This document shows, piece after piece, positions 7,405 to 64,000 of a stretch of 64,000 nt of DNA. Origin of the DNA: Puniceicoccales bacterium (GTDB lineage Bacteria; Verrucomicrobiota; Verrucomicrobiia; Opitutales; LL51). The position numbers were made by a program, and so were the translations under genes. Numbering within the stretch: the first letter of the stretch is position 1; each line of letters opens with the position of its first letter. The notes beneath the pieces were generated by a model. The model did no database searches. It was not told the origin of the DNA and was given only the letters and a program-made list of their open reading frames with translations. Location of the stretch: contig JAISXO010000034.1 in NCBI GenBank assembly GCA_031270475.1, positions 29,491-93,490 of the forward strand, written 5' to 3'.

Positions 7405-7432
7405 TTGTTTTTTTGTGGAGTTAAAAAAGCGC

Positions 7433-17056: not shown

Positions 17057-17263
17057 TTCTTCTAGTTGGTACATAGCGTTTGCTCTTTCCTTAGGCGGGA
17101 GAACATAGTTTTTTACATTTCCCAGGCATTTGCGACACTTGTTGTCTGCCGCTTGAATTACGAAGTTGTTTAACTTAAATCTTGCTGTTACATGAACTTT
17201 TCTAGATCCAAAGGCTTTCCTTCCTAAAACTTCCCCAGTATCCCCATCCAGAGCAGATGTCCT
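16976..17263 (-). pseudogene. start-less 95-codon open frame (gene remnant?)
   Basis: The frame is open from the TAA at 17264-17266 to the TAG at 16976-16978: RTSALDGDTGEVLGRKAF...NKCRKCLGNVKNYVLPPKERANAMYQLEEFYESPNIFPKMKNEIRNVLEDDCYVR. The first ATG is at codon 64. No family recognised. Confidence 0.3.
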
Positions 17264-19474: not shown

Positions 19475-19517
19475 AATGTGAAATGTTTTTGATTGAGTTC
19501 TTCTTGATGTGTTTTTT

Positions 19518-19588
19518 GTGCACCCGTGGAGGCTTCGCCTCCTAACCTTTTTTCAAAAGGTTTTGCGGCTTTGCCGCAACGGGTGCAC
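19518..19588. repeat. nested-hairpin element with the same architecture and a different sequence
   Basis: Outer stem GTGCACCCGT / ACGGGTGCAC encloses GGAGGC-ttc-GCCTCC, AACCTTTT-ttca-AAAAGGTT and TTGCGGC-ttt-GCCGCAA. Lies between convergent genes. Confidence 0.8.
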
Positions 19589-19596
19589 AAGTAAAT

Positions 19597-26081: not shown

Positions 26082-27458
26082 TTATATATATCGCCGCACG
26101 TTTGCCGACGGAATCGCAAGGAACGTACGATATTTAGTCACGGTTCGTCGAGCAATCCAAATGCCTTCATTTTGAAGTATTTGGGCGATTTTTTCATCGC
26201 TGAGCGGTTTGTTTTTGTTTTCATTTTTGATAATATTTTTAATACTCTCTCGGAGCGTGTTTTGTGCGATGAGGGAGCCATGATTACCGTGGGAAAAAAA
26301 GAAATCCAGCGGAATAATTCGATGTGGAATTTGAACATATTTATTTTTGACAGCCCGGGAAAGTGTTGTGGAGTGGATTTCGAGGCATTCCGCCACTTGT
26401 TTTTGACTCTGCGGACGAAGAAAATCACTGCCATTTTCTAGGAAGTCGCTTTGAAATTTCAAAATATATTCGGCAATTTTTTGTAAAGTTTCCCGGCGCT
26501 TGTGCAGCATCTTAACCAAAAATTGGGCTTGTTGTTTGTTCTCGGTAAAAAAATTACGGTCTTCGCGCTTTGATGAATGGGTAAACATCCTTAGGTAAAG
26601 GTCATTTATACGAATTTCCGGTGCACCGCGAACTTCGCAGCTCCAATGGCCGTCAATTTTTTGGAAAATAATTTCTGGAACAATCGCCGGATTGGCGTTG
26701 GGCATAATCGTTTTGAGCGGTGCAAAATTTAGCAATTTCAAGGGCACCAAAAGTGTACGCAATTCGGATGCCGTCTTACATAATTTTCTCCGCAATTTAG
26801 CGAATCGGCGATGCTCGAGGTCATCGAAATAGTGTGCAACGAGGTCATGGAGCGGCGTATTTTCCGGAATTTGCAACCGAAAGCAATCCTGCAAATCATG
26901 GGCACCAATCCCCTTCGGCGAAAGCGATCGCAATATCGCATAGGCTGTTTCAAAAACATTTTGCCGCGCATCGTCGGTCCGCGCATCGCAATTTTCCTCG
27001 CCATCCGGCCAAGAAATCCCGTACTGCTGAGCCGCATCCTCTGGCAAAAATCCGCGATCATCGAGGCTATTAATTAGCGTCGTCAGTGCCGTTTTTGTCG
27101 CCTCGTCCAAATCGGGAACCTGGGCGAGGAGGTAATCCTCAGGTGAATCTTCGGCACTAATATTTTCTAAAAAATTTGGATTGCTTTCTTCGTTATTTGG
27201 TATATCGCTCGTGCGCGCGCGCGCGCTCATATTAATAGTACTTTCCTTACTTGCACTCGCTGGAAAGCCGTAGGGAGCCGTGTCGGCGATGTCGAGAAGG
27301 GGGTTGCGCTGAATTTCCGCAGCAATGAGCCGGTAAAGTTCCTCGGTCGGCAATTGCAAAATGTCCAGAGAACGGAGCATGGACGGAGATAGTCGTTGGC
27401 TTTGAATTTGTAGGCGATCGTTCCTTAGGTCCACGGCGTAAGCATGGAGAGATACCAA
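26082..27458 (-). CDS. rpoN: RNA polymerase sigma-54 factor
   Basis: 458 aa. Gln/Leu-rich region I, HTH region, and RpoN box ARRTVTKYR near the C-terminus. Confidence 0.95.
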   Translation of the reverse strand: MVSLHAYAVDLRNDRLQIQSQRLSPSMLRSLDILQLPTEELYRLIAAEIQRNPLLDIADTAPYGFPASASKESTINMSARARTSDIPNNEESNPNFLENISAEDSPEDYLLAQVPDLDEATKTALTTLINSLDDRGFLPEDAAQQYGISWPDGEENCDARTDDARQNVFETAYAILRSLSPKGIGAHDLQDCFRLQIPENTPLHDLVAHYFDDLEHRRFAKLRRKLCKTASELRTLLVPLKLLNFAPLKTIMPNANPAIVPEIIFQKIDGHWSCEVRGAPEIRINDLYLRMFTHSSKREDRNFFTENKQQAQFLVKMLHKRRETLQKIAEYILKFQSDFLENGSDFLRPQSQKQVAECLEIHSTTLSRAVKNKYVQIPHRIIPLDFFFSHGNHGSLIAQNTLRESIKNIIKNENKNKPLSDEKIAQILQNEGIWIARRTVTKYRTFLAIPSANVRRYI

Positions 27459-27708
27459 CTTTTTTCAAGAAATGAAGTTAATTTTTGAGGGAATCAATCT
27501 GTGCCAAAAGAATTTCCGCAGCAATGAGCCGGTAAAGTTTCTCGGTCGGCAATTGCAAAATGTCCAGAGAACGGAGCATGGACGGAGATAGTCGTTGGCT
27601 TTGAATTTGTAGGCGATCGTTTCTTAGGTCCACGGCGTAAGCATGGAGAGATACCAACTTTTTTCAAGAAATGAAGTTAATTTTTGAGGGAATCAATCTG
27701 TACCAAAA
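27311..27708. repeat. tandem duplication, 2 x 199 bp, covering the rpoN 5' end and upstream region
   Basis: 27311-27509 and 27510-27708 differ at only a few positions by eye. The distal copy holds an rpoN start codon at 27657 and 49 identical or near-identical codons. Confidence 0.9.
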
Positions 27709-29087: not shown

Positions 29088-29505
29088 AACTTTCCATTAA
29101 ATTTATTTATTTATTTTGTTTTTGGCGCCGAGTTTTTGGAGATCGTCGCATTGGGAGAAAAGGCCGCCGCGGCCGTTAATTTTCGGAATAATTTTATCAT
29201 CAAACTGCTCGTGCACCTTGCCAAAGAGCTTGTACAGTTCGCGCAATTCGTCAAGCAATCCACAAAATTTATCGTACAATTTTCCACTGAGGCCGGGTCA
29301 ACTTTCCATTAAATTTTCTTTTTTAATTGATTTTTTATTTTTGGCGCCGAGTTTTTGGAGATCGTCGCATTGGGAGAGAAGGCCGCCGCGGCCGTTGATT
29401 TTCGGAATAATTTTATCATCAAACTGCTCGTGCACCTTGCCAAAGAGCTTGTACAGTTCGCGCAATTCGTCAAGCAATCCACAAAATTTATCGTACAATT
29501 TTCCG
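29088..29505. repeat. tandem duplication, 2 x ~212-219 bp, covering the rmuC 3' end and the rmuC-serS junction
   Basis: 29088-29299 and 29300-~29505 are near-identical apart from an AT-rich indel patch. Both copies end (minus strand) with ...TTAATGGAAAGTT(A/G)A, encoding LMES-stop. Confidence 0.9.
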
Positions 29506-30608
29506 CCGCGATCGGCAATTTCCTGTGCATTGAGGTTTTGTTTTTCGACCTGCCAAATCGCTTGAATCAGTCTCAGTGTCAAAAATAGCGTGGAAGGATA
29601 AACAATAATTACATTTTTCTGACGAGCGTATTCACAGATATCTTTTTTATGGGCCGAGGGATTGGAGACGACGCTCGCGTAGGCCGATTCGATGGGTAAA
29701 AACATCAGTAAAAATGGGCAAATATCGATGGCATTTTTAATTTGGTGGTATTTGGCTACTTCGTCGATGTGTTTTTGAATGGAGGCAATATGTTGCTGGA
29801 AAAACCGTTCCCGTTCCTGGGGGTCGGGGGTATTGACCATGCGTTCGTAGGCGGAAAGGGAGACCTTTGCATCGATCAAAATCCACTGATTGCGCGGGAG
29901 TTTGATGAGGAAATCCGGTCGAGCGGCTCCGTCATCGATCTTCAATTCGAGCCCCCTCCCTTGCTTGACATAGTCGCCATTTTCTTCAGATAGCCCGGCC
30001 TGCTCGAGGAGATTTTCCAGTTGAACCTCGCCCCAATCTCCCTGAATCTTCGCGTTATTGCGCAGGGCATTGGTCAAATTTTCGGCTTCGTTATGCATTT
30101 TTTCCACGCTGTCGAGGAGCGATTTGAGGTGGATCGACAGTTCCGTGCGCGATTTTGTTTCCGGAGAGAAAATTTCGGTTTTGAAGGTAGAGAATTCTTT
30201 TTGGAGATCGACGATAAGGTGGCCGATTTCCTTTTGTGTCTCCTCGGAAAATTTTTGTTTTTTGGCTTCTAGAATTTCCTGGGAGAGGCTGGAGAGCTCG
30301 AGTTTGAGTTGCTCTCGATGTTTGAGGATTTCGCTACGAGCGGTTTCGATAGCAATTTTTTCACCGGAGAGCCGTTGAAAATTTTCAAAAAGCTGATTGA
30401 ATTCCTGAGTTTTCTGTAAAAACTGCGCTTCAATGGCGGATAATCTCCCTTGTAATTCGGCCTTTTGCGTGGCGATTTCGGTGAAGCGCTCTTGGATATC
30501 CTTGAGTTGTGCAGCCAATGCGTTACATTCACTGCGATATTTATTAGCAAAATAGCAGATAATTCCTAGGAAAAACCCACAAGAAATAAGACACAGCGCA
30601 ATGATCAT
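29298..30608 (-). CDS. rmuC: DNA recombination protein RmuC
   Basis: 436 aa. N-terminal TM helix, long coiled coil, and RmuC nuclease-like C-domain (RPDFLIKLP..., IDAKVSL). Confidence 0.9.
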   Translation of the reverse strand: MIIALCLISCGFFLGIICYFANKYRSECNALAAQLKDIQERFTEIATQKAELQGRLSAIEAQFLQKTQEFNQLFENFQRLSGEKIAIETARSEILKHREQLKLELSSLSQEILEAKKQKFSEETQKEIGHLIVDLQKEFSTFKTEIFSPETKSRTELSIHLKSLLDSVEKMHNEAENLTNALRNNAKIQGDWGEVQLENLLEQAGLSEENGDYVKQGRGLELKIDDGAARPDFLIKLPRNQWILIDAKVSLSAYERMVNTPDPQERERFFQQHIASIQKHIDEVAKYHQIKNAIDICPFLLMFLPIESAYASVVSNPSAHKKDICEYARQKNVIIVYPSTLFLTLRLIQAIWQVEKQNLNAQEIADRGGKLYDKFCGLLDELRELYKLFGKVHEQFDDKIIPKINGRGGLLSQCDDLQKLGAKNKKSIKKENLMES

Positions 30609-30935
30609 GACAAAATATTATCTAAACCGCCAAAGAAATTTATTCAAATCCAAAAAATTTCCCCCAAAAAAGCTTGACATTAATTAAAAGCGCTGAAATA
30701 CTTGCTGCCAAGCGCTCTTGGATATCCTTGAGTTGTGCAGCCAATGCGTTACATTCACTGCGATATTTATTAGCAAAATAGCAGATAATTCCTAGGAAAA
30801 ACCCACAAAAAATAAGACACAGCACAATGATCATGACAAAATATTATCTAAACCGCCAAAGAAAATTATTCAAATCTAAAAAAAAATCCCAAAAAAGCTT
30901 GACATTAATTAAAAGCGCTGAAATACTCGCTACCA
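30484..30935. repeat. tandem duplication, 2 x 226 bp, covering the rmuC 5' end and the divergent promoter region
   Basis: 30484-30709 and 30710-30935 are near-identical. ORF 30640..30834(-) is the decoy rmuC 5' fragment; its first 41 aa match RmuC closely. Confidence 0.9.
30899..30927 (+). promoter_or_regulatory. candidate sigma70-type promoter (a duplicate sits at ~30673-30701)
   Basis: aaaaaagcTTGACA (30899-30904), 17 nt, AATACT (30922-30927). Lies 11 nt upstream of ATG 30938. Confidence 0.5.
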
Positions 30936-34611: not shown

Positions 34612-34820
34612 TTTTTCTCAGATCAATAAATTATATCCGCAAAATTTATCAAGAAAGATAGGCCGTCGATTTGCAATTTTCTATGACATTCATATTTATT
34701 TTATATTTTTAGGCGAAATTTACGAACAATTTTTCCAAAATGCTTCCAAGGGTATTGTCATTTAATATTTCGTCTTTAGAAAAGCGTTATTTTCTCTGGT
34801 ATAATCCCTAGCCACCTAAC

Positions 34821-34915
34821 TTCTTTCAATGTATTGTAAAGCGCCAGAGATAGACGAATCGTTCCGCCAATGCCGAGCGCATGCATCAACGAATTACGCA
34901 TAGTGATATCCGGTG
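34821..34915 (-). pseudogene. displaced partial copy of the sufS 3' region
   Basis: 34821-34915 matches sufS 35077-35172 with an offset of 256 bp. The first ~80 bp are highly similar by eye and the rest is weaker. It lies beyond the sufS stop codon. Confidence 0.75.
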
Positions 34916-35010
34916 TTTTCGGTCACTCAAAGTTTTTTAAATGGAATTCACGGAGAATAAAATTGCTAGAAAATTAAATCGAACGTGGGCGATAGGCGGG
35001 CGGTGCATTG

Positions 35011-36234
35011 TTATCGATGGGAATTTTTCTTAAAAATATGGATAATTTTGTCCATGGCAGTGACCAGTTGCTCAATTTCTTCCAATGTGTTGTAAGGCGC
35101 CAGAGATAGACGAACCGTTCCGCCAATGCCGAGCGCATGCATCAACGGTTGCGCACAGTGATGCCCGGCTCGTACCGCAATTCCCTCGCTATCAAATATA
35201 CTGGCCACATCGTGGGGATGCGCGGATCGATGAATGAATGAAATAATTCCCGTTCGCTGATTGTTCGGCTTGAGAACCTCAATGGACGAATTTTGTCCCA
35301 AAATTTCCAAAACATGCCCCTTGAGTCCCTCGCCATATCTTTGTGCCTCAATCCAATCTATCTTCCCGAGAAATCGAATCGCTTCCCGTAGCCCCGTAAC
35401 TCCAACAACATTCGGCGTACCTGCTTCAAAACGAGTAGGAATCTCGCGGAATAAGGCCGGTTGATCGAAGGCTACGCGATCGACAATCCCTCCGCCTAAG
35501 TGGTACGGCTGAAAATGCTCCAGGTGTTCGGCGCGGCCATAGAGAAATCCAATTCCCATCGGCCCAAAAGCCTTGTGCGCGGAAGTTGCAAAGAAATCAC
35601 ACTCCATCTCCCGTACATCAATCGGTCCGTGTCCCAATGATTGCGCGCCATCGACGATGCAAAGCGCTCCAACCCTATGCGCCATCTGGGCAATTTTTTT
35701 TATCGGATTAATCGTCCCTAAAACGTTTCCAATGTGCGCAATGGAAACAATCCGCGTGCGCTCCGAAAGCTTGTGCCCAAAATCATTCCCGTCGAAATCG
35801 CCCGCTTCCGTCATCGATACAATGCGAATCGTCGCCCTAAGCCGCTGCCATGGAAGAATATTAGCGTGGTGTTCCTGGACAAATAAAATAATTTCATCTT
35901 CCGTTGTGAGAGATGCGAATTGGGATGCTAGAAAATTGATGCCTTCCGTCGTCCCCGAATTGAGAATGATTTCCCGTGGCTCGCGAGCGTTGATCCAATG
36001 GGCGATTTCTCGGCGTGTAGACTCGTAAATTTCCTCGGCCTTCGCACTGAGATCATATATCCCGCGGTGGACGTTAGCGTTAGTTGTGCGCAGATGGTAG
36101 GCCATTGCTCCGATGACACGCTCCGGTAATTGAGTTGTGGCCGCGTTATCGAAGTAAATCAGAGGCTTTTCAAAACGATTGTGACCACTTAAGATCGGGA
36201 ATTCCTGGCGAAAGGCGTGAACATCGAAACTCAT
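35011..36234 (-). CDS. sufS: cysteine desulfurase (SufS/CsdA class V aminotransferase)
   Basis: 407 aa. HHANILPWQ, SAHKAFGPMGIG (PLP lysine) and RAGHHCAQP motifs. Confidence 0.9.
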   Translation of the reverse strand: MSFDVHAFRQEFPILSGHNRFEKPLIYFDNAATTQLPERVIGAMAYHLRTTNANVHRGIYDLSAKAEEIYESTRREIAHWINAREPREIILNSGTTEGINFLASQFASLTTEDEIILFVQEHHANILPWQRLRATIRIVSMTEAGDFDGNDFGHKLSERTRIVSIAHIGNVLGTINPIKKIAQMAHRVGALCIVDGAQSLGHGPIDVREMECDFFATSAHKAFGPMGIGFLYGRAEHLEHFQPYHLGGGIVDRVAFDQPALFREIPTRFEAGTPNVVGVTGLREAIRFLGKIDWIEAQRYGEGLKGHVLEILGQNSSIEVLKPNNQRTGIISFIHRSAHPHDVASIFDSEGIAVRAGHHCAQPLMHALGIGGTVRLSLAPYNTLEEIEQLVTAMDKIIHIFKKNSHR

Positions 36235-36366
36235 AGCGAGATTTGTCTAGCCCTTTAGAATTTTTTACCGTTGTCAAGCTTTTTTATTTTTTAGTGTTAT
36301 TCCCGTGGATGAATTCCCATCCCGAAGATATGATAAATAACAGTTCAGTGTGTGGCGGAAAATTTT

Positions 36367-36426
36367 ACGCGCCGCTTGCTCCCACCCTCTACCTTCCAGT
36401 CTTGAAAGAATTTCAGGACCTATCAA
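36367..36426 (-). promoter_or_regulatory. promoter-like module with conserved motif (faces sufS)
   Basis: The minus strand reads CTTGATA (36426-36421), 17 nt, AAGACT, 5 nt, GTAGAGGGTGGGAGCAAGCGGCGCGT. Lies 133 nt upstream of the sufS ATG. Confidence 0.55.
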
Positions 36427-36478
36427 GTCGTTTCTGAAAAGATAATTTTCAAAAATAAAAATATTTTGTATTTTCTTC

Positions 36479-37330: not shown

Positions 37331-37335
37331 AAATT

Positions 37336-37613
37336 TTCACGTGCCGCTTGCTCCCACCCTTGAAAGAATTTCAGGGCCTGTCAAGTCGTTTCTGAAAAGA
37401 TAATTTTCAAAAATAAAAATATTTTGTATTTTCTTTTTGACATAATTCATAAAATCGCGACAATCACTTTATGGTCGATTTGCAACGCAACAAAGCGTAA
37501 GGAGCAAAAGTAAATCTTTTACATTGATTGGAATCGTTTTTATTATTGCCATCACCGGCATTTTACATGCCGCTTGCTCCCACCCTTGAAAGAATTTCAG
37601 TGCCTGTCAAGTG
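37336..37613. repeat. second copy of the divergent-promoter / pilin 5' segment, flanked by two short-form modules
   Basis: 37336-37567 matches 36365-36608. Short modules at 37339-37384 and 37565-37610 (minus) read TTGACA, 17 nt, AAGGGTGGGAGCAAGCGGCA(C/T)GT, which is a 13-nt deletion relative to the long form. Confidence 0.85.
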
Positions 37614-37854
37614 ATTTTTTTGGAATTATTAATACTAGCTTCGTCATTTGGATTTCTAGTATCGGTGAAAGTTGAAATAAATCGCCAGGAATACCTTGAA
37701 AAACTGATATCTACTTTCCCTCTTTGAAAAAACCGGACCTCTGCCAAGTGATTTTTTGAAAATAAATCAATAAAAAATAACAAAACATTGATAGATTGCG
37801 TTTCCAGTTTCCAAAAAGTAATTCCCGGAATTTTTATTTATACTTTGACAATAA

Positions 37855-39054
37855 TTGCCGAAAAATACGTTTATTCCCATGGACGCGCTCGTCAAACTCG
37901 TCGACGGTATCGATACAATTGTTGGACAGGAGTCCCTATCGGAACGCCTATCGCAAAAAAAAATCCTGAAAGTGAAACTTGGTGTCGATCCAACTCGCCC
38001 CGATTTGACCTTTGGCCATATGGTCGTTTTCAATAAATTGCGCCAGTTTCAGGATCTCGGCCACGAAGCAATTTTGCTGATCGGCGACCATACTGCTACC
38101 ATTGGCGATCCTTCCGGTCGTTCTTCGACGCGCCCGGTGTTGACTACCCAAGAGGTCGACCAAAATGCCAAAACTTACCTCGAGCAGGCCTTCAAAATTA
38201 TCGATCCCGAGAGGACGACGATTCGGCGCAATAGCGAGTGGTTTCGAAGGATGACGTTCGACGATATGCTCATTATTGCCCGTAAAATGACGGTTGCGCG
38301 GATGCTTGAGCGGGACGATTTTGCGAAACGCTACCGCGAAAATGAGCCCATTTCCATTGTCGAGTTTTTATATCCTTTGATGCAGGGGTATGATTCGGTC
38401 ATGCTCGAAGCCGACGTCGAGCTTGGCGGAACGGATCAATTTTTCAATTTATTGGTTGGCCGCGCGCTCCAAAGGGATTATGGCCAGCGGGAGCAGATTG
38501 TCATCACGATGCCGCTCATCGTCGGTCTTGATGGGAAGCGTAAAATGTCAAAAAGTTACGATAATTACATTTCATTTAACCATTCTTCAAAGGATATGTT
38601 TGGGCGGATCATGTCGATTCCGGACGAAGTGATGTGGACCTATTTCAAGTTATTATTGGAGTATTCTGACGGGGCGATCGAGGCGTTGAAGGGGGGGCAT
38701 CCCATGGATGCGAAAAAATTTTTGGCTCGATCGTTGGTGGCGCGATTTTACGGTCCAGAAGTCGGGGAGCAAGAGTTAGCGGATTTTGAGGCGGTATTTT
38801 CGCATGGAGAAATCCCGGAAGCGATGCCGGAATTTTCGTTACAAGCGATGGCAAAGGATCCGGTTACTTTAGCCGACGCGATGGCATATTCGCAATTTTT
38901 TGAAAGCAATCGAGAGATTCGCCGACTCATTGAGCAAGGAGCTGTCAAAGTTAATGGGAAGAGTGAAAAGAATTTTAAGTTTCCTTTACGATCCGACCGC
39001 TGTCCCCATGTCATTCAGTCTGGCAAGCGCATATTTTTAAAAGTTATTCCGTAG
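37855..39054 (+). CDS. tyrS: tyrosyl-tRNA synthetase
   Basis: 399 aa. Class I motifs (TFGHMV HIGH-like, KMSKS). C-terminal S4-like domain (IRRLIEQGAVKVNG). Alternative start at 37879. Confidence 0.9.
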   Translation: MPKNTFIPMDALVKLVDGIDTIVGQESLSERLSQKKILKVKLGVDPTRPDLTFGHMVVFNKLRQFQDLGHEAILLIGDHTATIGDPSGRSSTRPVLTTQEVDQNAKTYLEQAFKIIDPERTTIRRNSEWFRRMTFDDMLIIARKMTVARMLERDDFAKRYRENEPISIVEFLYPLMQGYDSVMLEADVELGGTDQFFNLLVGRALQRDYGQREQIVITMPLIVGLDGKRKMSKSYDNYISFNHSSKDMFGRIMSIPDEVMWTYFKLLLEYSDGAIEALKGGHPMDAKKFLARSLVARFYGPEVGEQELADFEAVFSHGEIPEAMPEFSLQAMAKDPVTLADAMAYSQFFESNREIRRLIEQGAVKVNGKSEKNFKFPLRSDRCPHVIQSGKRIFLKVIP

Positions 39055-39505
39055 AAAATAATTAGTGCGTTTATGGCTAATTATTTTTTGCATTATCGCA
39101 GTCGAAAAATTATTTTTTTGTAACGGCGATATATCTTTAAATAGATTTTGAGGCGGTATTGCACACAGAGAAATTGAAAAAAAACAAAAAGGATTTTAAG
39201 ATTCCTTTATAATTCGACCGCTGTCCCCATATTATTCAGTCCGGCAAGCGCATATTTTTAAAAGTTATTCCGTAGGAAATAATTAATGTGTTTACGGTTA
39301 ATTATTTTTTGCATTATCGCAATCGAAAAATTATTTTTTTGTAACGGCGATATATCTTTAAATAGATTTTGAGGCGGTATTGCACACAGAGAAATTGAAA
39401 AAAACAAAAAGAATTTTAAGATCCTTTTACGATTCGACCGCTGTCCCCATGTCATTCGGTCTGGCAAGCGCATACTTTTAAAAGTTATTCCGTAGGAAAA
39501 TGATT
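38972..39505. repeat. tandem repeat, ~2.4 x ~221 bp, reiterating the tyrS 3' end
   Basis: ATTTTAAG...CGACCGCTGTCCCCAT...GGCAAGCGCATA..TTTTAAAAGTTATTCCGTAG recurs at 38972, 39193 and 39413. The units also carry AGATTTTGAGGCGGTATT, which matches tyrS at ~38785. Confidence 0.85.
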
Positions 39506-39545
39506 AATTTATTTACAATTGAATCTTTTTTTTTACACTAATGCA

Positions 39546-47043: not shown

Positions 47044-47668
47044 ATTTTTTTTGTATTACGAATTGTTGATGTTTTTTTTATTCTGTTCGGGGTGTACACT
47101 TTTCAAGACGACTCCCGATCGGACGCGTCTATTTGACATTGGATTTCGGGGGACGCAATCGGCGATGTCTTCGGTAGACAGTGCAAAAATTTGTCTTATT
47201 TTGGGGAGTTTTCCGGATTATCTCGATGGATCACCGATCATCACGAAGATTGGTGAGCATGAATTGAAAAATAATCCGCGCTATCGTTGGGCCAAACCGC
47301 TTTCGGAAACGATTCTTTACATTGTAAAACGCAGTATTTTGCAAAGTTTTTCGAAAGTTTACGTCTATGAATTCCCCAAAGATACCATGGATAAGATTGA
47401 TTTTACGCTATGTTTAGACGTCGATGGGCTGGAGATTTGCGAAGTGACGCAGCGGATTATCTTTAAAGGGACGTGGACTTTTTTAGATGCGAAGCAACGG
47501 AATATAACCCATGCTCCATTTGAATTTTGCGAGTCATTTGATGATTTTTCGGATCGTTACGGAGAAATAGTGGCCAAGGTGGAGCAGGTTATCCATCATT
47601 TAGGCGACGCGATTGTAAAGGAAATGGATCTTATTTTTCTAAAAAGAATAACGGGAAATAATCCCTAG
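47033..47668 (+). CDS. ABC-transport auxiliary lipoprotein (PqiC/YmbA-like)
   Basis: MKTRFFLYYELLMFFLFCSGC lipobox. Its position directly after an MCE gene is typical. Confidence 0.6.
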   Translation: MKTRFFLYYELLMFFLFCSGCTLFKTTPDRTRLFDIGFRGTQSAMSSVDSAKICLILGSFPDYLDGSPIITKIGEHELKNNPRYRWAKPLSETILYIVKRSILQSFSKVYVYEFPKDTMDKIDFTLCLDVDGLEICEVTQRIIFKGTWTFLDAKQRNITHAPFEFCESFDDFSDRYGEIVAKVEQVIHHLGDAIVKEMDLIFLKRITGNNP

Positions 47669-47958
47669 CAAGCCGTTTGGGATGCGTTTAAAAGAAGAAG
47701 AGAATATTAGTGGAGAGAGGCGTCGCATTTCTTTTTTTGATATGAATGATAGAAATAAGAAGAAATAGTGGCCAAGGAGGAGCAGGTTATCCATCATTTA
47801 GGCGACGCGATTGTAAAGGAAATGGATCTTATTTTTCTAAAAAAAATAACGGGAAATAATCCCTAGCAAGCCGTTTTGGATGCGTTTAAAAGAAGAAAAG
47901 AATATTAGGGGAGAGGCGTCGCATTTCTTTTTTTGATATGAATGATGGAAATAAGAAG
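47563..47958. repeat. tandem duplication, 2 x 198 bp, spanning both 3' ends of a convergent gene pair
   Basis: 47563-47760 and 47761-47958 are near-identical. The junction reads gatAGAAATAagaAGAAATAgtgg, with AGAAATA microhomology. Confidence 0.9.
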
Positions 47959-49224
47959 ACTGATTGCGGAACCTAAAAGAAGAATACGCGTCAAAATAAA
48001 ATATGAACCAAAACTCTTTTGAGAATAACTGAACGCCGATGGCGCAATGGCGGCAAAAAGAGAGACGATCAGTGCCACGCTAGACATGATGTGCCCAAGG
48101 TGTTTCCGGCCAAAAAGTTTGGGCCAAGGCGCCGCAGAGGCGATTCCGTAAAGCGACCAGTTAAATCCACACAAGCAAATAAAAGGCCATAATCCCCACG
48201 ATTGGCAAACGTTTTCTAAAAAAAACATCAGAGCCGCATTGGTCGAAAAAATTGCGAGTAAACAGCAGCGAATTGAAGATCGATCCTGAAGAATACTGAA
48301 TAGAACTCCCGCAATCGCGCTGACTACGGCGGCAAATGGAAAAATGTTCAGTGGATTGGCAGTGCAGGCGTGGGCCTCGCGAAAAATATCGACGATGTGA
48401 ATCTCTAAACCCGTTGAAGTAAAAGTCGACGTCGAAACCGCTAGAACAAAAATCCAAAAATCAAAGGTACCAAGTGCCTGACGCAACGTGTAGTCGCGCG
48501 CAACAATTGGATGATCACTGTTGTTTTTTAATCCATCTCGATTGCTGCCAACCGACTGAGGATTGTCGCGACATAGGGCCCAAATAAAAGGAAGCATTAC
48601 CAAAAGAATAATGAGGCCTTGCGCCATCCAAGCCGTGAGGTAGCCCAATTCTTCGATTAAACGGTGAATAATCTTCGGCGCACAACCAAAGGTAATGGAA
48701 ACAAAAATACCGGAAATGCCAATCATGGTGCAACTTCTTTTATCGTACCACTGGAGAAGCATCATGCGACTGGCGAGCGGGATGAGGTTTTGTCCGCATA
48801 GTTTTAGTAAAAAAAGTCCCGGGAAAAGTATGCAAGTAACGGCGACAAAGTGCGAGGTACAGCCTTCCACCGAGGCGATGGCAGAAGCGATGTGGCCCAT
48901 GAAAAGCAGTGTTAATCCCAGCATTAATGTGGCATAGGTAACGGCTCGACGAATTCCGATGCGGTCAAAAAGTGTGCCTAAAAGTGGCAGTAACAGGGCA
49001 CTGAGCAGGGTCGCGAAGAAAAAAATATTACTGAAATGATTGCGAGAAATGTGTAAATTTTGAATGAGTTCTTCCGTAAAGGGGCAAAGGCCGACGCTAT
49101 GGCCAGGAATACTAATCATTCGCGCGCAAAGAGAGGTAAAAAAGATGACCAAACCGTAAAAAAATGGTACACGCTTTGGAGCAAAGGGAAAATTTGGGGC
49201 AAAAATTTTCGATTTTTTCGACAT
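47905..49224 (-). CDS. MFS transporter
   Basis: 439 aa, ~12 predicted hydrophobic helices, and an MFS motif-A-like LGTLFDRIGIRR. Confidence 0.75.
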   Translation of the reverse strand: MSKKSKIFAPNFPFAPKRVPFFYGLVIFFTSLCARMISIPGHSVGLCPFTEELIQNLHISRNHFSNIFFFATLLSALLLPLLGTLFDRIGIRRAVTYATLMLGLTLLFMGHIASAIASVEGCTSHFVAVTCILFPGLFLLKLCGQNLIPLASRMMLLQWYDKRSCTMIGISGIFVSITFGCAPKIIHRLIEELGYLTAWMAQGLIILLVMLPFIWALCRDNPQSVGSNRDGLKNNSDHPIVARDYTLRQALGTFDFWIFVLAVSTSTFTSTGLEIHIVDIFREAHACTANPLNIFPFAAVVSAIAGVLFSILQDRSSIRCCLLAIFSTNAALMFFLENVCQSWGLWPFICLCGFNWSLYGIASAAPWPKLFGRKHLGHIMSSVALIVSLFAAIAPSAFSYSQKSFGSYFILTRILLLGSAISLLISIIHIKKRNATPLP

Positions 49225-55928: not shown

Positions 55929-56007
55929 AGATTCCTCCTTTACCCATATTGGGAAGTTTTGAAGAAATTCAAGTTTTTGAAAAAACTTATTGGCGAAGGG
56001 ATTTTTT

Positions 56008-56067
56008 ACATGCCGCTTGCTCCCACCCTCTACTCTCCAGCCTTGCCGCACTTTTTATTGTTGTCAA
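56008..56067 (-). promoter_or_regulatory. promoter-like module with conserved motif (faces recD2)
   Basis: The minus strand reads aaaaaaaCTTGACA (56067-56062), 17 nt, AAGGCT, 5 nt, GTAGAGGGTGGGAGCAAGCGGCATGTAAAAAA. Confidence 0.55.
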
Positions 56068-56096
56068 GTTTTTTTAATATTTTTTTAAGTGATGAC

Positions 56097-56179
56097 GGTG
56101 CTCGAGGAGGGACTCGAACCCTCATGCCTTGCGGCACCAGATCCTAAGTCTGGCGTGTCTACCATTCCACCACCCGAGC
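56097..56179 (-). tRNA. tRNA-Leu (anticodon UAG)
   Basis: The reverse complement folds as a cloverleaf: acceptor GCTCGGG/CTCGAGC, anticodon stem CCAGA/TCTGG with loop CTTAGGA, long variable arm TGCC-gcaa-GGCA, and T arm GAGGG-TTCGAGT-CCCTC. CC of CCA is encoded. Confidence 0.9.
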
Positions 56180-57311: not shown

Positions 57312-57504
57312 GAAAAATTTATAAATTTCCCGAAAAAACCATCCATCCAAAGGGAGGGTCCGAGAGGCTCTCCCAATTTTTGTTTGTACTAAATTATTTT
57401 GAAATTTTATTATTTTTTTAAGATATTCTCGCTGATTTATTTCAATTTCCTCCGGTACTGGAAACTTAAATGACAAGGCTACCATTAATATTTAAAAAAA
57501 CAAC

Positions 57505-57564
57505 TTGACAGGTATTGAAATTCTTCCAAGTTTGAAGGGTAGAGGGTAGGAGCAAGCGGCATGT
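57505..57564 (+). promoter_or_regulatory. promoter-like module with conserved motif, orphan copy
   Basis: aaaaaaacaaCTTGACA (57505-57510), 17 nt, AAGTTT, 5 nt, GTAGAGGGTAGGAGCAAGCGGCATGTGAAAAA. The next gene (mnmE) is convergent. Confidence 0.5.
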
Positions 57565-57607
57565 GAAAAATAGAGCGTAAATTTTTTAGAATTAATTAAT
57601 AGTTTAC

Positions 57608-58954
57608 TTATTTCCCGACGCAAAATTGATTAAAAATTTTCCCGAGCATTTCTTCGGTACTGTATTGACCCGTGATCTGGCCCAACATTTCCAAAGCCAA
57701 TCGCAAATCACTGGCGCATAGTTCGTAGGATTGTTGATTATCGAGAACATTTTTTGCGGAAGCGATCAAGTCATGAGCCGTTTGAAAAATTTCCCGGTGG
57801 CGCTCGTTAATGGCAATTGTTGTCGCCGTGGGGACGAATTTATTTTCCCGAATTTTTCCTGCAATGGTCGCTTTTAAAACATCAATTCCCATACCGTGTT
57901 TAGCAGAAATGGATATTTGCGAAAAATCTTTCAGTGTCTCCAAAAAGTTTGGTGGTAAATTTTTAGTGAGGTCCATTTTGTTAAAAACAAGAATGCATAC
58001 TTTTTTTTGAAGTTCATTTACGATTATTTCTCCAATAGGAAGGGGCACATTCTGATCCACAATGATGAGGCAAAGATCCGCGGAACGAATGTGCTCGATT
58101 GTTTTTTGAATACCGAGTTGTTCGATAGCGTCATCCGTGGCCCGCAACCCGGCCGTGTCGACAATTTTTATCAAAAAACCTTCAATTGTAATCGTTTCGC
58201 AAATAAAATCGCGGGTCGTTCCCGGAATGTCACTCACCAATGCCCGTTCTTCGTTAAGTAGCGCATTGAGTAAACTACTTTTTCCCGCATTTGGATGCCC
58301 AACAATCACTACCGAAATACCGTGGAGAAGCGTTTTTCGGAATTTGTGACTGTCGATAATTTTTTTAATCTCATTTAATATTTTGTCAAATTTATCTAAA
58401 ATTCCACTGTCAAATTCGAGGTTTTCGTCGACAAAATCAATGCGTGCTTCGATCTCCGCAAGCAACGAAAGTAATCCATCGCTAAAATTAAAAATCTTTT
58501 CACTGAGTGTGCCTTGCAACTGTTTTTGAGAAACTTCAAGCGCACTCTCATGGGTCGCGTGAATGATGTCCAATACCGCTTCCGCTTGGCAAAGATCGAT
58601 TTTGTGGTTTAAATAGGCGCGCTTCGTAAATTCTCCCGGTTCGGCCATGCGGCATCCCGAAAGCTGTAAATCCTCAATAATTAAACGAATAATCAATGGA
58701 TTGCCGTGACAGTCGATTTCCATGGAATCCTCGCCCGTGTAAGAGCGTTCGCCAGAAAAAAATAATAAAATAACTTGATCGAAAACTTTTCCGGAAGTGG
58801 ATCGGTAATTCGCTAAAAATACGGAATGAGTAGCCAGATTCTCTTTCCCAAAATGCCTTCCCATCAGTGTCCGCGTTAAAGGACCACTCACGCGAATCTT
58901 AGCAATGGCCGATACCCCAAACGGCGTGCCTAGGGCGACAATGGTGTCAACCAT
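57608..58954 (-). CDS. mnmE: tRNA modification GTPase MnmE
   Basis: 448 aa. N-terminal DTIVALGTP, G-domain GHPNAGKSSLLN / DTAG, and C-terminal ...CVGK. Confidence 0.95.
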   Translation of the reverse strand: MVDTIVALGTPFGVSAIAKIRVSGPLTRTLMGRHFGKENLATHSVFLANYRSTSGKVFDQVILLFFSGERSYTGEDSMEIDCHGNPLIIRLIIEDLQLSGCRMAEPGEFTKRAYLNHKIDLCQAEAVLDIIHATHESALEVSQKQLQGTLSEKIFNFSDGLLSLLAEIEARIDFVDENLEFDSGILDKFDKILNEIKKIIDSHKFRKTLLHGISVVIVGHPNAGKSSLLNALLNEERALVSDIPGTTRDFICETITIEGFLIKIVDTAGLRATDDAIEQLGIQKTIEHIRSADLCLIIVDQNVPLPIGEIIVNELQKKVCILVFNKMDLTKNLPPNFLETLKDFSQISISAKHGMGIDVLKATIAGKIRENKFVPTATTIAINERHREIFQTAHDLIASAKNVLDNQQSYELCASDLRLALEMLGQITGQYSTEEMLGKIFNQFCVGK

Positions 58955-58960
58955 AGATAA

Positions 58961-59236
58961 TTAACGGGCGGAACGACGCGGTCCAAAACTGTGTATTGGC
59001 GTGTTCTTGTGAACAACCGCGTTCTTTAGCCGAAAGGTAATGCGCGCCCTCTCAAGATCGTGGGGACTCATTTCCATCCGTACGCGATCCCCTACCGCTA
59101 GACGAATGAAATTTTTGCGCAGCTTTCCTGAGATGTGGGCCAATACATGGTGCCCATTTTCAAGCTCCACACGAAACATCGTTCCGGGAAGCACGGCAAA
59201 TACTTTTCCTGTTACTTCATTGCAATCATCGGCCAT
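58961..59236 (-). CDS. infA: translation initiation factor IF-1 with a ~18-aa basic C-terminal extension
   Basis: The internal ATG (59236) gives [46 protein letters not shown]..., the S1-like IF-1 core. Confidence 0.9.
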
Positions 59237-59343
59237 AAATAAAAAAACAATACTTGAATAATATTCCATAGTCTCTAAAAATTTCGTCCCCTTGTCAACA
59301 TTATTCGTAAATTTTTCCGAAAATTGCCAAAGAACTGTTGTTT

Positions 59344-59521
59344 AAAGGCTGCGCGTCCTTAGGATCCGTGAGAGGGAAGCTATTCCCGGAGCTGCCCCGC
59401 GGCGAAGCCGCGGGGGCAGCCAGCCTTCGGCCGAGCCCGGCCCTTCGGGCCGGGCTCGGCCGTCCAATGAGGTCAAGAAGTTGAGACTCCTTGCGGAGGT
59501 CTGGTCTGGGCGGAGCCCTTT
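59344..59521. repeat. GC-rich multi-hairpin element, variant copy C5
   Basis: Hairpins GGGAA-gcta-TTCCC, GCTGCCCCGCGGC-gaa-GCCGCGGGGCAGC (59391-59420), GGCCGAGCCCGGCCC-ttc-GGGCCGGGCTCGGCC (59429-59461) and GACTCC-ttgc-GGAGGTC. Flanked by AAAGGCT...AGCCCTTT. Confidence 0.75.
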
Positions 59522-59600
59522 GGCAACATAAATTCTATCGACTGCCGCAATATTTTCTCGTATTTGGTGGAGGGATTCTAAAAATGCGTCCCTCACAAGG

Positions 59601-60698
59601 GTGAAATTTCTCCATCGGTACATATTGCGGCAATATTTGTTTTATTTAGCGGGATCGGTGTTATTTTTTGACATTGTACTCGTAGTGGGAAACGTCATGA
59701 AAAGCATGATTGATTTTCTAGTGGGCGGAAAATTATCGGTTAGCAATTGTTTTTTTTTAGTAGTGACGCTGATACCTTCGATGATTTCCTATGCACTGCC
59801 CTTTGGTTTTGTAGTAGCGACGCTATTGACATTGGGAGAAATATCTGCGAACAATGAATTAGTTGCGCTCCGGGGTTCAGGAATAGGTCCGTTGAGGATA
59901 TTTTCGTCGATTTTATTTTTGGCGAGTTGTGGTGTTTGGGTATCGCTTGTGATGAATTTTCACTATGCTCCGCTGGCCATTTCCCGTGTTAAAAGTAAGC
60001 TTCAAAACATCATTCGCGAGGAGCCTTTACGTTTTATAACGCCGCAGAAATTCATTCGAGATTTCCCTGGATATATTATTTTTGTGAAAAATTTAAATCA
60101 AAAGTGCCTCAATCATTTTCACATTTGGGAACTCGATGAGCAGGAACATGTTGCGACATATATGCAGGCGAAAACGGGAACATTGGGATACGATGCGCAG
60201 AAAAATGCTCTCGTTTTGACCCTATTGGACGGGACCGTTGAAAAGCAATTGGAGGGGGAAAAGGTCTCACCATTGGTTTATTTTGAAAAGTTTGCGCTCG
60301 ATTTACCATTGGATAATATTTTTAAAGAAGCGCGAATGCAAAAAAAAATTCGCCACATGACATTGCAAGAGATGCTGACATTGCGTCGACAAAGTTTGAA
60401 AGAATCTGAAAAATATATGGATATTCAGGTGGAAATGCAGATGAAAAGTGCCATGGCCTTTGCGATTTTGACGCTCGTATTGGTAACAATTCCACTGGCG
60501 GTGCAACTGGGACGCCGGGAATTGTCGATGAATGTTGCCATTGCCCTATTGCTTTGTTTGGGATATTATTTGGCAATGATGGTGCTATCATTCTTGAAAA
60601 CGCGACCACATCTTCATCCGGATCTCTTGCTTTGGATTCCTAATATTTTACTGCAAATTTTAGGGCTAAAAATGTGTTGGAAGTTGTGTCGCCGTTGA
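59601..60698 (+). CDS. LptF/LptG family LPS export permease
   Basis: 365 aa. N-terminal (M)KFLHRYILRQYL typical of YjgP/YjgQ; the start codon at 59601 is GTG. Three TM segments, a periplasmic domain, then three TM segments. Confidence 0.8.
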   Translation: MKFLHRYILRQYLFYLAGSVLFFDIVLVVGNVMKSMIDFLVGGKLSVSNCFFLVVTLIPSMISYALPFGFVVATLLTLGEISANNELVALRGSGIGPLRIFSSILFLASCGVWVSLVMNFHYAPLAISRVKSKLQNIIREEPLRFITPQKFIRDFPGYIIFVKNLNQKCLNHFHIWELDEQEHVATYMQAKTGTLGYDAQKNALVLTLLDGTVEKQLEGEKVSPLVYFEKFALDLPLDNIFKEARMQKKIRHMTLQEMLTLRRQSLKESEKYMDIQVEMQMKSAMAFAILTLVLVTIPLAVQLGRRELSMNVAIALLLCLGYYLAMMVLSFLKTRPHLHPDLLLWIPNILLQILGLKMCWKLCRR

Positions 60699-60802
60699 AT
60701 GTAATCGAAATTGTAATCCTGTTTTGAAAAGGAAATTATTCTTCGAAAATGTTTTGCAATGGAAATTATTTTTTTATAAATAGCTGTCCATAGTGTGCTA
60801 TT

Positions 60803-61102
60803 ATGGATGATTTGAAGATTTTTTTGGTGACCATTTTTCACAATTCGGAAGAAAATAATGGGAAAGTACATCATGCGCTGAAAATGTTGGGATATAAACG
60901 TTCCTTCGTCCGCGATGGAGAATCCTACGATTTGCCAGATAATATGTTTATTCGTAAAGTTAAGGGCGATAATCCCAGGGAAGTTCAAAACGAAGAAATG
61001 CAGTCGGTTACACTGTTGCTTAAAGAAAAATCCATCGAACATGGCGAGTTGGGGTTCTTCGTCGGCGATGATTGGACCGAAATCGTAAGCGTCGAAGGTT
61101 AA
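60803..61102 (+). CDS. small hypothetical protein (99 aa)
   Basis: Preceded by TTGCAA, 17 nt, TAAATA. Composition looks protein-like, unlike the overlapping antisense ORF. No family recognised. Confidence 0.4.
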   Translation: MDDLKIFLVTIFHNSEENNGKVHHALKMLGYKRSFVRDGESYDLPDNMFIRKVKGDNPREVQNEEMQSVTLLLKEKSIEHGELGFFVGDDWTEIVSVEG

Positions 61103-61126
61103 ATTTATATCGCTGTTCGGCGGGCT

Positions 61127-61214
61127 GGGGCAAAAGCCGCGCGCAAAGCGCGCAAGGCCTGGGGCGAAGCCCCAGGCCTTTCAAGGAGCCTTCGGCTCCT
61201 TGGGCTTTTGCCCC
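61127..61214 (+). repeat. cloverleaf element, copy C6
   Basis: Outer stem GGGGCAAAAGCC / GGCTTTTGCCCC encloses GCGCGC-aaa-GCGCGC, AAGGCCTGGGGC-gaa-GCCCCAGGCCTT and CAAGGAGCC-ttc-GGCTCCTTG. Confidence 0.9.
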
Positions 61215-61272
61215 AAGGTCCATCGCCCGATAAATTCTTGCGAAAATCCGAGGACTTCTTTTACCCTTAGTC

Positions 61273-62364
61273 ATGTTACGGGCAGGAATTGTAGGATTAC
61301 CGAATGTGGGAAAGAGCACATTATTCAACGCATTGACGCGCACTCGCAAGGCTCAGGCGGAGAATTATCCCTTTTGCACCATCGATCCGAACATTGGCGT
61401 TGTCGAAGTCCCCGATGAGCGCCTAGCCATTTTAAAGCCCATTGCCAAGACGGAAAAACTCGTACCGGCGGCGATAGAAATAGTGGACATAGCGGGTCTC
61501 GTAGCGGGGGCGAATCGGGGCGAGGGATTGGGTAATAAATTTCTTGGAAACATTCGAGAGGTCGATGCAATTATACATGTAGTACGCTGTTTTGAGGACG
61601 GCGATATTATTCACAGTTCTGGGGGAATTGATCCGATACGCGACATTGAAATTGTCAATACGGAGCTCATTTTAGCGGACCTACAATCCATAGAAAATCA
61701 GCTCAATAAAAACATCAAAAAATCTCGGGCAAATGATGCGGAAGCGATTCGAGCCGTCGAGTTATTGCAGCATTTGGAGGAGCATCTCAACGGAGGAAAT
61801 CCGGCCAATACCTTGGAAATGGGCGATGAGGAAAAACTTTTATTAAAGTCGTTCAATTTGCTTTCTTCCAAGCCGGTGATTTACGCCTGTAACGTGGCGG
61901 AGGGGGAAATTAGTAATATATTTACGGAGCGGGTCGCAGTCCATGTGCGGTCCATGCATCATGCGGAATGTTGCATCATTTGTGCCCAATTGGAATCGGA
62001 TTTGGTTGATTTTTCCGCGGAGGAAGCGCGGACGTATCTCCTCGATTTGGGGGTTAAAGACAGCGGTGTATCGGATTTAATAGGGGCGACTTACCGTTTA
62101 CTAGGGCTTGCTTCCTATTTTACGGCCGGGGAGATGGAAGTTCACGCGTGGACGTTCAAAGTGGGCATGAAGGCACCCCAATGTGCTGGTATTATCCACG
62201 GCGATTTTGAGCGTGGATTTATTAAGGCGGAGGTGGTGAGCTATGAAGATTTGGTTGCGGCGGGATCGTTTGTTGCGGCAAAGGAAGCGGGTAAATATCG
62301 CCTCGAGGGAAAAGAATATGAAGTTAGGGATGGCGATGTGATTATTTTTCGTTTTAATGGGTAG
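61273..62364 (+). CDS. ychF: redox-regulated ATPase YchF
   Basis: 363 aa. [18 protein letters not shown] and a C-terminal TGS-like domain ending ...[11 protein letters not shown]. Confidence 0.95.
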
Positions 62365-62370
62365 TTGATT

Positions 62371-62457
62371 GGGGCGAAAGCCCAAGGAGCCGAAGGCTCC
62401 TTGAAGGCCTGGGGCTTTGCCCCAGGCCTTGCGCGCTTCGCGCGCGGCTTTTGCCCC
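62371..62457 (-). repeat. cloverleaf element, copy C7 (inverted copy of C6)
   Basis: It is the reverse complement of C6 apart from about 3 differences. Outer stem GGGGCGAAAGCC / GGCTTTTGCCCC (one G-T pair). Starts 7 nt after the ychF stop. Confidence 0.9.
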
Positions 62458-62560
62458 ATTCCGCCCGCACCGCGGCATAATTCAGGGTTCGGATTTGTTT
62501 GTGCCTGGGGTTATTGTGAAAGCAATCAGAGATTTAGTTAGGGCGGGATTATTTGTTAGA

Positions 62561-62663
62561 GCGAGGGAGGCGAACAAATATTGCCTCAAAGGAATATTGC
62601 CTCAGAGGAAAAGAATATGAAGTTAAGGATGGCGATGTAATTATTTTTCCTTTTAATAGATAA
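62561..62663 (+). pseudogene. decayed duplicate of the ychF 3' end abutting the lpxB start
   Basis: 62561-62663 aligns with ychF 62277-62364: ...AAATAT(T/C)GCCTC...GAAAAGAATATGAAGTTA(A/G)GGATGGCGATGT(A/G)ATTATTTTTC(C/G)TTTTAAT... It carries an internal 16-bp duplication and ends 2 nt before the lpxB ATG. Confidence 0.8.
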
Positions 62664-62665
62664 TC

Positions 62666-63817
62666 ATGCAGAAAATCGCATTCAATGAAATCAAGGCAGA
62701 ATACCCCGATTTATTGGTAATTGCCGGTGAATATTCCGGTGATGAACATGGCGCGACGTTTGTGAGAAAATTAAAAGTGCAATGTCCCCGGTATAATATT
62801 TGTGCGATCGGTGGCGATAATTTAGAGGGGACAGGTATCGATTTTTTATTCAATTTGGTAGAATTTTCCGTCGTCGGTATGGCCGAAGTTTTACGCAGCA
62901 TCCAATTTTTTTCGAAATTTTTAAAAAAAACTTGCGACTGGATCGAAAAATATCGCCCAAAAGTCGTTTGCTTTATCGATTTTCCCGGACTCAATTTGCG
63001 CATTGCAAAGGAATTATTTCGTCGAGGTATCAGTTGTAAAGCCGGTGGAAATGTAAAACTTTATCACTATATCAGTCCGCAAATTTGGGCCTGGAAAGCC
63101 AAACGCCGCTTTTTTATTGCAAAATATATCGATGCGCTCGGCACAATTTTCCCTTTCGAAAAAGCATGCTACCACGATACCGACCTCGATGTGCAGTTCC
63201 TAGGCCATCCACTCCTGGATTCTCCGTTGCCCGTTCGCCATTCTTCCCATGGCCCCATTCTCCTTCTGCCCGGTAGTCGAAAAATCGCCGTAAAAAAAAT
63301 CTTCCCCATTATGCTCAACACCGTCAATCAACTTAAAAAAATTGGCGAAATTTGTGAATTGGTCGTTCTTTATCCCGATGAGGATATTTTGGAAGTCTTG
63401 CAAAATATTTACAAGAAATATAAGAATATTTCCCTCTCCTTTGTGCGCAGCGGTTCCTGTACGATTTCGGCGCGTGCGGCGCTGATGAGCTCGGGGACTA
63501 TGGCTCTCAATTGTGCTCTCGCCGGCATTCCCAGCGTCGTCGTTTATAAGGCCAGTACCTTGACCTACGGATTGGCGAAATTGTTGGTTAAGGTGAAATT
63601 TTTACATATCGCCAATATTCTCCTCAATCGGGAGTCGGCGCGGGAATTTTTACAATTTTCGGCAAAACCGAAGTTAATCTGTCATGCGCTGCGCGATTGC
63701 TTGAATGATCCGGAAGTTTTGTCTCAGGCGCAGAAGGATGGGGAAGAATTGAGGCGGTTACTATCGGTTGAATCCCAAAATGATGTGGTATCTTGGATTC
63801 GCGACGCTTTGGTCTAA
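62666..63817 (+). CDS. lpxB: lipid-A-disaccharide synthase
   Basis: 383 aa. LLVIAGEYSGDEHGA N-terminus, ISPQIWAWK, LLPGSR motifs. Confidence 0.9.
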   Translation: MQKIAFNEIKAEYPDLLVIAGEYSGDEHGATFVRKLKVQCPRYNICAIGGDNLEGTGIDFLFNLVEFSVVGMAEVLRSIQFFSKFLKKTCDWIEKYRPKVVCFIDFPGLNLRIAKELFRRGISCKAGGNVKLYHYISPQIWAWKAKRRFFIAKYIDALGTIFPFEKACYHDTDLDVQFLGHPLLDSPLPVRHSSHGPILLLPGSRKIAVKKIFPIMLNTVNQLKKIGEICELVVLYPDEDILEVLQNIYKKYKNISLSFVRSGSCTISARAALMSSGTMALNCALAGIPSVVVYKASTLTYGLAKLLVKVKFLHIANILLNRESAREFLQFSAKPKLICHALRDCLNDPEVLSQAQKDGEELRRLLSVESQNDVVSWIRDALV

Positions 63818-63818
63818 G

Positions 63819-64000
63819 GGGCGGCCTAAGGGCTGTGCGCCATTAGGAATCCGCGCCAGGAGATCCATCTCCTGGACCTGGATAGAGCCCGGCGCGAAGC
63901 GCCGGGCTAAAATAGAAAGAGTCCCCGCGGCTACGCCGCGGGGACTCTTAAAAAGGGGACTCTTGAAAGGAGGTCAAGGAGTCTGGAGTCCTTGTGGGGG
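63819..64000. repeat. GC-rich multi-hairpin element, variant copy C8 (runs to the window edge)
   Basis: Hairpins CCAGGAGAT-cc-ATCTCCTGG (63856-63875), AGCCCGGCGC-gaa-GCGCCGGGCT (63886-63908) and GAGTCCCCGCGG-cta-CGCCGCGGGGACTC (63919-63947). Confidence 0.7.

Follow-up and report, generated by a model that had tools for sequence, protein, structure and literature searches.

The REP, BIME and REPIN elements of Proteobacteria are mobilised by RAYT transposases. Pneumococcal BOX elements, the Correia elements of Neisseria and the Rickettsia palindromic elements are non-autonomous folded repeats of about 100 nt that have spread within their lineages. A REP is an imperfect palindrome of 20–40 nt marked by a conserved tag, GTAG or CGTC (PMC3733652).

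Here, we describe a structured repeat, which we call the cloverleaf, in a 64-kb stretch of DNA with a GC content of 44 % (the window). Two inverted copies, C6 and C7, lie on either side of ychF, and a decayed second copy of the ychF 3′ end, referred to as the echo, lies between C7 and lpxB.

The ychF–lpxB locus

The YchF protein encoded in the window is 100 % identical to MDR1590984.1, a protein from a Puniceicoccales metagenome-assembled genome (MAG). The names of related MAGs begin with codes, for example Gsp477 and Ncb351, that were confirmed in the literature to denote lower-termite gut samples. The local gene order, trmE, infA, lptF/G, a 99-aa ORF, ychF and lpxB, is common to the relatives. 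The 99-aa ORF occupies 60803–61102 and its stop codon adjoins the sequence flanking C6. Both ychF (61273–62364, + strand; 363 aa, with Pfam MMR_HSR1 and YchF-GTPase_C) and lpxB (62666–63817, + strand; 383 aa, Pfam LpxB, 1.4e-77) are intact, and the N-terminus of LpxB is collinear with that of relatives.

A conserved leader beginning CGATAAATTCTTGCGA (61228–61272, + strand) immediately precedes ychF and is kept in the relative contigs L001–L004. It is possibly a promoter, and was not flagged by the consensus promoter scan. The DNA immediately 5′ of the leader varies among the relatives. An IpgD-like effector gene is found upstream of it in L002 (3756–5765) and L134 (1899–3848), and an unrelated gene on the minus strand in L004 (2–718), L005 (3–98) and L133 (3–620). 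The boundary has the appearance of a hotspot for rearrangement.

An empty site in relatives

The comparison set consisted of eight contigs encoding close relatives of YchF (82–90 % amino-acid identity). A metagenome scan using YchF recovered only relatives of no more than 68 % identity, which are uninformative for the empty-site comparison. In seven of the eight contigs, lpxB starts within 5 nt of the ychF stop codon or overlaps it, the usual form being stop-TC-ATG, and the sequence of the eighth (L134) breaks off 52 nt past the ychF stop codon. No cloverleaf was found near ychF in any of the eight. Covariance model R1 of the cloverleaf, described below, detected no copy in 52 kb of ychF-relative loci, and C6 and C7 are specific to the window lineage. 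As seven relatives have abutting or overlapping genes and no cloverleaf, the empty site that had been predicted exists.

In the window, the echo ends TAA-TC-ATG, the ATG being that of lpxB, and the joint, AATAGATAA TC ATGCAGAAAATCGC, is an almost base-for-base match to the closest relative. The proposal in the earlier note that ychF once ended directly before lpxB is thus borne out by seven relatives and by the collinear joint between the echo and lpxB, which together indicate an ancestral state with the ychF stop codon 2 nt ahead of the lpxB ATG. The working end and the echo are offset by 283–299 nt, and this DNA was interposed in the window lineage only. This DNA appears to be fully explained by a duplicated ychF end, C7 and approximately 20 nt of sequence resembling the C6 flank.

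The echo of the ychF 3′ end

The echo (62530–62663, + strand) is made up of two collinear blocks. The distal block (62593–62657) is 89 % identical to ychF 62294–62358 (E = 1.5e-19) and the middle block (62530–62587) is 74 % identical to ychF 62247–62304 (E = 7e-5), with a 16-nt internal tandem duplication between them at 62577–62610. The echo had been placed at 62561–62663 and described as a copy of the last ~88 bp of ychF. It is real, significant in a proper alignment and has the 16-nt duplication, but it is longer, with a secure length of at least 134 nt. The source segment at the working end is 62247–62364 (+ strand), though its start may be 62188. A possible extension of the echo to 62474 is of marginal significance (p about 0.04), and the spacer at 62481–62529, in which similarity to ychF 62188–62247 is likewise marginal, is probably heavily decayed echo. 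A search for another source of 62458–62535 found none. At 62474–62488, GGC ATA ATT CAG GGT is aligned with GGT ATT ATC CAC GGC in ychF and all 5 of the 5 differences are at third codon positions, which is odd for neutral decay; the stretch overlaps the homology to the C6 flank and its origin is therefore ambiguous.

An 8-bp inverted repeat in this region had been counted as part of the new DNA. However, both of its arms lie within the decayed echo, where ychF has TCGTTTGTT and GGTAAATA, and the repeat is a by-product of echo decay.

Among the 29 differences between the echo and the working end that could be polarised, 27 fall on the echo branch, many of the echo-branch changes being G>A, and 2 on the working copy. 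On this evidence, the echo has the look of a decaying spare copy. In a neighbour-joining tree, it could not be placed as the sister of the working ychF end (bootstrap ≤22 %) because of its long branch. Identity to ychF climbs towards lpxB, from 64–69 % to 86 %. The ~70 nt nearest to lpxB have decayed more slowly than the rest (Fisher p = 0.006), which suggests that this part may now serve lpxB expression. Conservation at third codon positions is not raised in the ychF end of the relatives, where a hidden lpxB signal was looked for.

The echo contains a frameshift, caused by the 16-nt duplication, and stop codons, and is therefore not the working ychF end of another strain. This bears on whether the junction could be an assembly artefact, namely a mis-join through cloverleaf repeats or a chimera of strains. 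In favour of an artefact, the assembly is a MAG built from short reads, cloverleaves are dispersed repeats, and exact look-ups of the window YchF and LpxB found no second assembly or strain variant. However, both sides of the junction match the relatives in gene order and orientation and, by reasoning only, a tandem joint requires real junction k-mers. We consider an artefact scarcely credible.

Origin of the working ychF end

Nucleotide identity between the window ychF and its relatives is flat along the gene. The closest relatives, L132 and L004, are the same for the body of ychF, the end of ychF and lpxB, with the same ranking. On these comparisons the working 3′ end is native. A foreign origin of the end was ruled out by the flat identity and by the ranking of relatives shared with lpxB.

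These findings weigh against the suggestion that a small integrating element targeted the 3′ end of ychF and brought a replacement end with it. Such an element would leave direct repeats of the target end on either side of the insert, as seen here (62247–62364 and 62530–62663), and the displaced end would stay on the downstream gene, as the echo has. However, a plain duplication also yields such repeats. The DNA between the two copies of the ychF end is about 165 nt and contains no credible ORF, the insert itself is only ~90–110 nt and has no cargo, and no integrase or transposase was found by Pfam among 49 ORFs in the window, as had already been noted for the integrase. The working end, moreover, has the identity profile and ranking of the ychF body and lpxB.

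It had further been asked whether other cloverleaves are accompanied by gene-end echoes. Around 24 other copies, and around other hairpin clusters, similarity is no higher than background, while the C7 flank has an echo score of 96 against a background 95th percentile of 28. An echo is not a general by-product of cloverleaf insertion. With an insert composed of a duplicate and a cloverleaf, a native end, no integrase and 24 echo-free copies, we regard an integrating element as a very improbable source of this arrangement.

C6 and C7

C6 (61127–61214, + strand) consists of a 12-bp closing stem, GGGGCAAAAGCC/GGCTTTTGCCCC, and three hairpins, and is the best match to model R1 (108 bits). Its inverted sister, C7 (62371–62457, − strand; 98 bits), begins 6 nt past the ychF stop codon. 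The two had been described as reverse complements with about three differences, and over 88 nt they differ by 3 substitutions and 1 single-base indel (E = 3e-38 in a BLAST comparison within the window). They are 94 % identical to one another and no more than 86 % identical to other copies in the window, making each the closest copy of the other. Both are predicted to fold stably on either strand, with energies of −75 to −79 kcal/mol and z-scores between −7.8 and −9.2, and neither was called as an intrinsic terminator by the consensus terminator scan.

The homology overruns the cloverleaf by approximately 20 nt on one side, where the sequence between the stop codon of the 99-aa ORF and C6 (61105–61126, + strand) recurs inverted beside C7 (62458–62480). 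When anchored at the cloverleaf edge, 15 of 20 positions match, though a free local alignment is not significant. An alignment seeking a longer inverted copy of the C6 upstream flank beside C7 was also not significant. At unconstrained loop and junction positions, by our own count on the alignment, the divergence of C6 and C7 is similar in extent to the decay of the echo, and C7 therefore need not be younger than the duplication.

As the earlier note had it, C6 and C7 enclose the 58-nt leader and the whole of ychF, the ORF being complete (61273–62364). Inverted repeats of 88–110 nt that are 94 % identical and surround a gene and its conserved leader might form an invertible cassette, with recombination flipping the leader and ychF as a switch, and cloverleaf modules do seem to be recombination-active elsewhere (see the ankyrin insert in L102, below). 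However, ychF is in the same, ancestral orientation in the window and in all eight relatives, there is no invertase gene nearby, and inversion leaves the echo unexplained. A switch of this kind seems most unlikely.

The cloverleaf repeat family

When species-representative genomes were scanned for its pattern, the cloverleaf was detected in at least seven further MAGs of Puniceicoccales from the guts of lower termites. The unit is 80–90 nt long, begins GGGGCAAAAGC and has three hairpins with loops mostly of 3 nt (3–6 nt across copies). In an alignment of 25 copies the closing stem is invariant and the three hairpins covary, with 94.9 % of cells paired and 19 pairs in which both sides have changed. 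None of 500 shuffles was as good, and the signal collapses when the partners are slid. Model R1 finds exactly five copies in the window, starting at 726, 42742, 53652, 61127 and 62371. Those at 726 and 42742 have counterparts at the same position in other MAGs, with ~84–87 % nucleotide identity.

All 25 copies are intergenic and they are mostly near the 3′ end of a gene, at a distance of 5–120 nt in most cases and up to ~250 nt. By our tally, the copies are split roughly evenly between the two orientations with respect to the neighbouring gene. Most copies are preceded by T-runs and followed by A-runs; these flanks (a T-run upstream, CAAA downstream) pair together and are not direct repeats. 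Formally, the closing stem is a 12-bp terminal inverted repeat, and no consistent direct repeat was found in the flanks of the 25 copies.

ARAGORN did not call the cloverleaves as tRNAs, the only tRNA in the window being tRNA-Leu at 56097–56179, and an Rfam search of 58000–64000 gave only sub-threshold chance matches. A scan of viral contigs returned two matches, both of which failed model R1, and a viral source was rejected. No description of this repeat was found in the searchable literature and it is apparently an undescribed family of structured intergenic repeats.

Other structured sequences were seen. At 19516–19590 an unrelated sequence has the same architecture of closing stem and three hairpins (−49 kcal/mol, z = −8.6). 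Intergenic clusters of other perfect GC-rich hairpins are found at 59344–59499 and 63820–63950, and at 5575–6091 in L099, and some of these hairpin modules are common to another MAG in which the cluster as a whole has undergone tandem duplication. A distinct family of repeats, TTTTACRYGCCGCTTGCTCCCACCC...CCTGTCAAGT, has TTGACA on the opposite strand and is not a tRNA fragment. Its copies are at 7425–7505 (−), 36363–36443, 37335–37391, 37561–37709, 56004–56075 and 57408–57571 (−), and one of them adjoins tRNA-Leu.

In contig L102 (MAG Cc175_bin33), two hairpin-plus-cloverleaf modules in direct orientation (1735–1845 and 4009–4120) surround a 2.2-kb insert containing an ankyrin-repeat gene. At this site, between accC and lepA, there is a single module in the window (726–840) and in three other MAGs, and two in L102, which suggests that the ankyrin cassette may have been gained by recombination at the module. 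The cloverleaf could be a new structured-DNA recombination or mobility site, resembling a four-way junction and recognised by some enzyme. In line with this, it brackets an inserted cassette as direct repeats in L102, an inverted copy of it can arise close by, and the insertion between ychF and lpxB may carry a target duplication of ~120–180 nt. We hold this role to be doubtful.

Tandem duplications at gene ends

The window contains seven further tandem duplications of 198–256 nt (91–98 % identity) at gene ends or in intergenic DNA, namely at 16553–17060, 27311–27708, 29088–29515, 30484–30935, 34818–35147, 38957–39516 and 47558–47959, all known from one short-read MAG assembly. Their sites include the 5′ end of rpoN, both ends of rmuC, the 3′ ends of tyrS and an iscS-like gene, and a convergent ABC-aux/MFS pair. 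Between rmuC and serS, an echo of the rmuC 3′ end (~210 nt, 96 % identical) ends TAA-AATT-ATG, the ATG being that of serS, and no cloverleaf is present. This is a clean, cloverleaf-free analogue of the ychF–lpxB duplication, which alone has GC-rich DNA inserted at the joint. Per 100 kb, there are about 6 such duplications in the window, 3 at other cloverleaf-bearing MAG loci and 0–0.4 elsewhere. Two adjacent S9-peptidase-like paralogues in the window also have 5′ ends and upstream sequence that are 95 % identical (4275–4435 and 6295–6455).

Proposed history of the junction

The reading we prefer for this Puniceicoccales genome from a lower-termite gut, to which we give about an even chance, is a local rearrangement specific to this lineage in which a slippage-type duplication was combined with an inverted copy of C6 at the joint. 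In a first step, the last ~120–180 nt of ychF would have been tandemly duplicated across the junction with lpxB, probably by slippage. The first copy would have kept completing ychF, while the second, non-coding, would have remained on lpxB and decayed. In a second step, a copy of C6, 1.2 kb upstream, would have been put at the joint in inverted orientation, right behind the ychF stop codon, apparently carrying along ~20 nt of the C6 flank. The other cloverleaf sites examined are all in pre-existing intergenic DNA; as there was none between ychF and lpxB, a copy would be viable there only together with a duplication that left the ychF end as well as the DNA preceding lpxB intact. Two once-abutting and probably coupled genes would now be expected to be parted by a structure of about −78 kcal/mol.

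This two-step history is consistent with the empty site in relatives, with a collinear, significant echo that decays on its own branch and with a native working end. It accounts for the interposed DNA as duplicate, cloverleaf and ~20-nt extension. Clean duplications are common in this genome, including the one at rmuC–serS, and the other 24 cloverleaves have no flanking echoes. The cloverleaf family is real by covariation, and its copies, all intergenic, are usually near gene 3′ ends. Against it, if the events were independent, the position of C7 exactly at the joint, 6 nt past the stop codon, is something of a coincidence, which is softened but not removed by the usual location of cloverleaves near gene 3′ ends. 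Further points on this side are that C7 need not postdate the duplication, given the similar divergence of C6/C7 and the echo; that the echo could not be placed as sister of the working end; that the slower decay near lpxB is explained by inference; and that the tandem duplications come from a single short-read assembly.

The coincidence would vanish if a single complex replication event was responsible, in which the nascent strand at the ychF end switched template to the nearby, hairpin-rich C6, made an inverted copy of it and of ~20 nt of flanking sequence, and returned to a point ~120–180 nt upstream in ychF. The status of C6 and C7 as closest mutual copies (94 % versus ≤86 %), their confinement to the window lineage and a homology that seems to take in C6 flank outside the element also fit a single event. 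However, no microhomology can be traced at the switch points, the evidence from the flank extension is weak, and tandem duplications free of any insert are the rule in this genome. We view a single event as possible but rather unlikely.

Implications

In the history that we favour, a junction of 2 nt, probably translationally coupled, was opened without harm to either gene, and the empty sites in relatives back this example. Duplication of the upstream gene end would have provided the means, its spare copy becoming the new spacer. More novel are the cloverleaf family, its possible role in recombination and the load of gene-end tandem duplications. The comparison reveals a family of structured repeats, apparently undescribed, in Verrucomicrobiota of termite guts, and an unusual density of ~200-nt gene-end tandem duplications in the genomes that bear it. 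Both are likely drivers of rearrangement in these host-associated bacteria. Should the cloverleaf prove to be a mobility site, the ~200-nt duplications would be footprints of the same machinery. We also note that the cloverleaves and the tandem duplications are traps for gene callers and for island predictors, by which gene-end echoes are read as att sites.

Comparison with known systems

The ychF locus resembles a genomic island inserted at a gene 3′ end in that a displaced 3′ end decays downstream of the insert while, upstream, the gene has been made whole again. It differs in having no integrase and no cargo, and in that the replacement end is native.

The locus also resembles duplications produced by slippage, microhomology or template switching, as a direct repeat of 120–250 nt is involved, such repeats recur in this genome, and only those that span a gene boundary survive. 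It differs in that a structured repeat from close by has been copied, inverted, at the joint, and a density of about 8 duplications in 64 kb is unusual.

The cloverleaf itself can be compared with the REP, BIME and REPIN elements. Like them, it is short, GC-rich, structured, dispersed and intergenic, lies near gene 3′ ends in both orientations, can keep its position between species and can act as a rearrangement substrate. In contrast to a REP, it is an ~88-nt four-way junction with an invariant 12-bp stem and three covarying hairpins, rather than a palindrome or doublet, and it lacks the GTAG or CGTC tag. No RAYT gene was found in the 64-kb window. In comparison with MITEs and modular repeats, it has no evident short target-site duplication or parent IS. 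With the BOX, Correia and Rickettsia palindromic elements, it shares a non-autonomous character, spread within a lineage, a size of approximately 100 nt, a highly folded structure and the capacity to reshape gene junctions.
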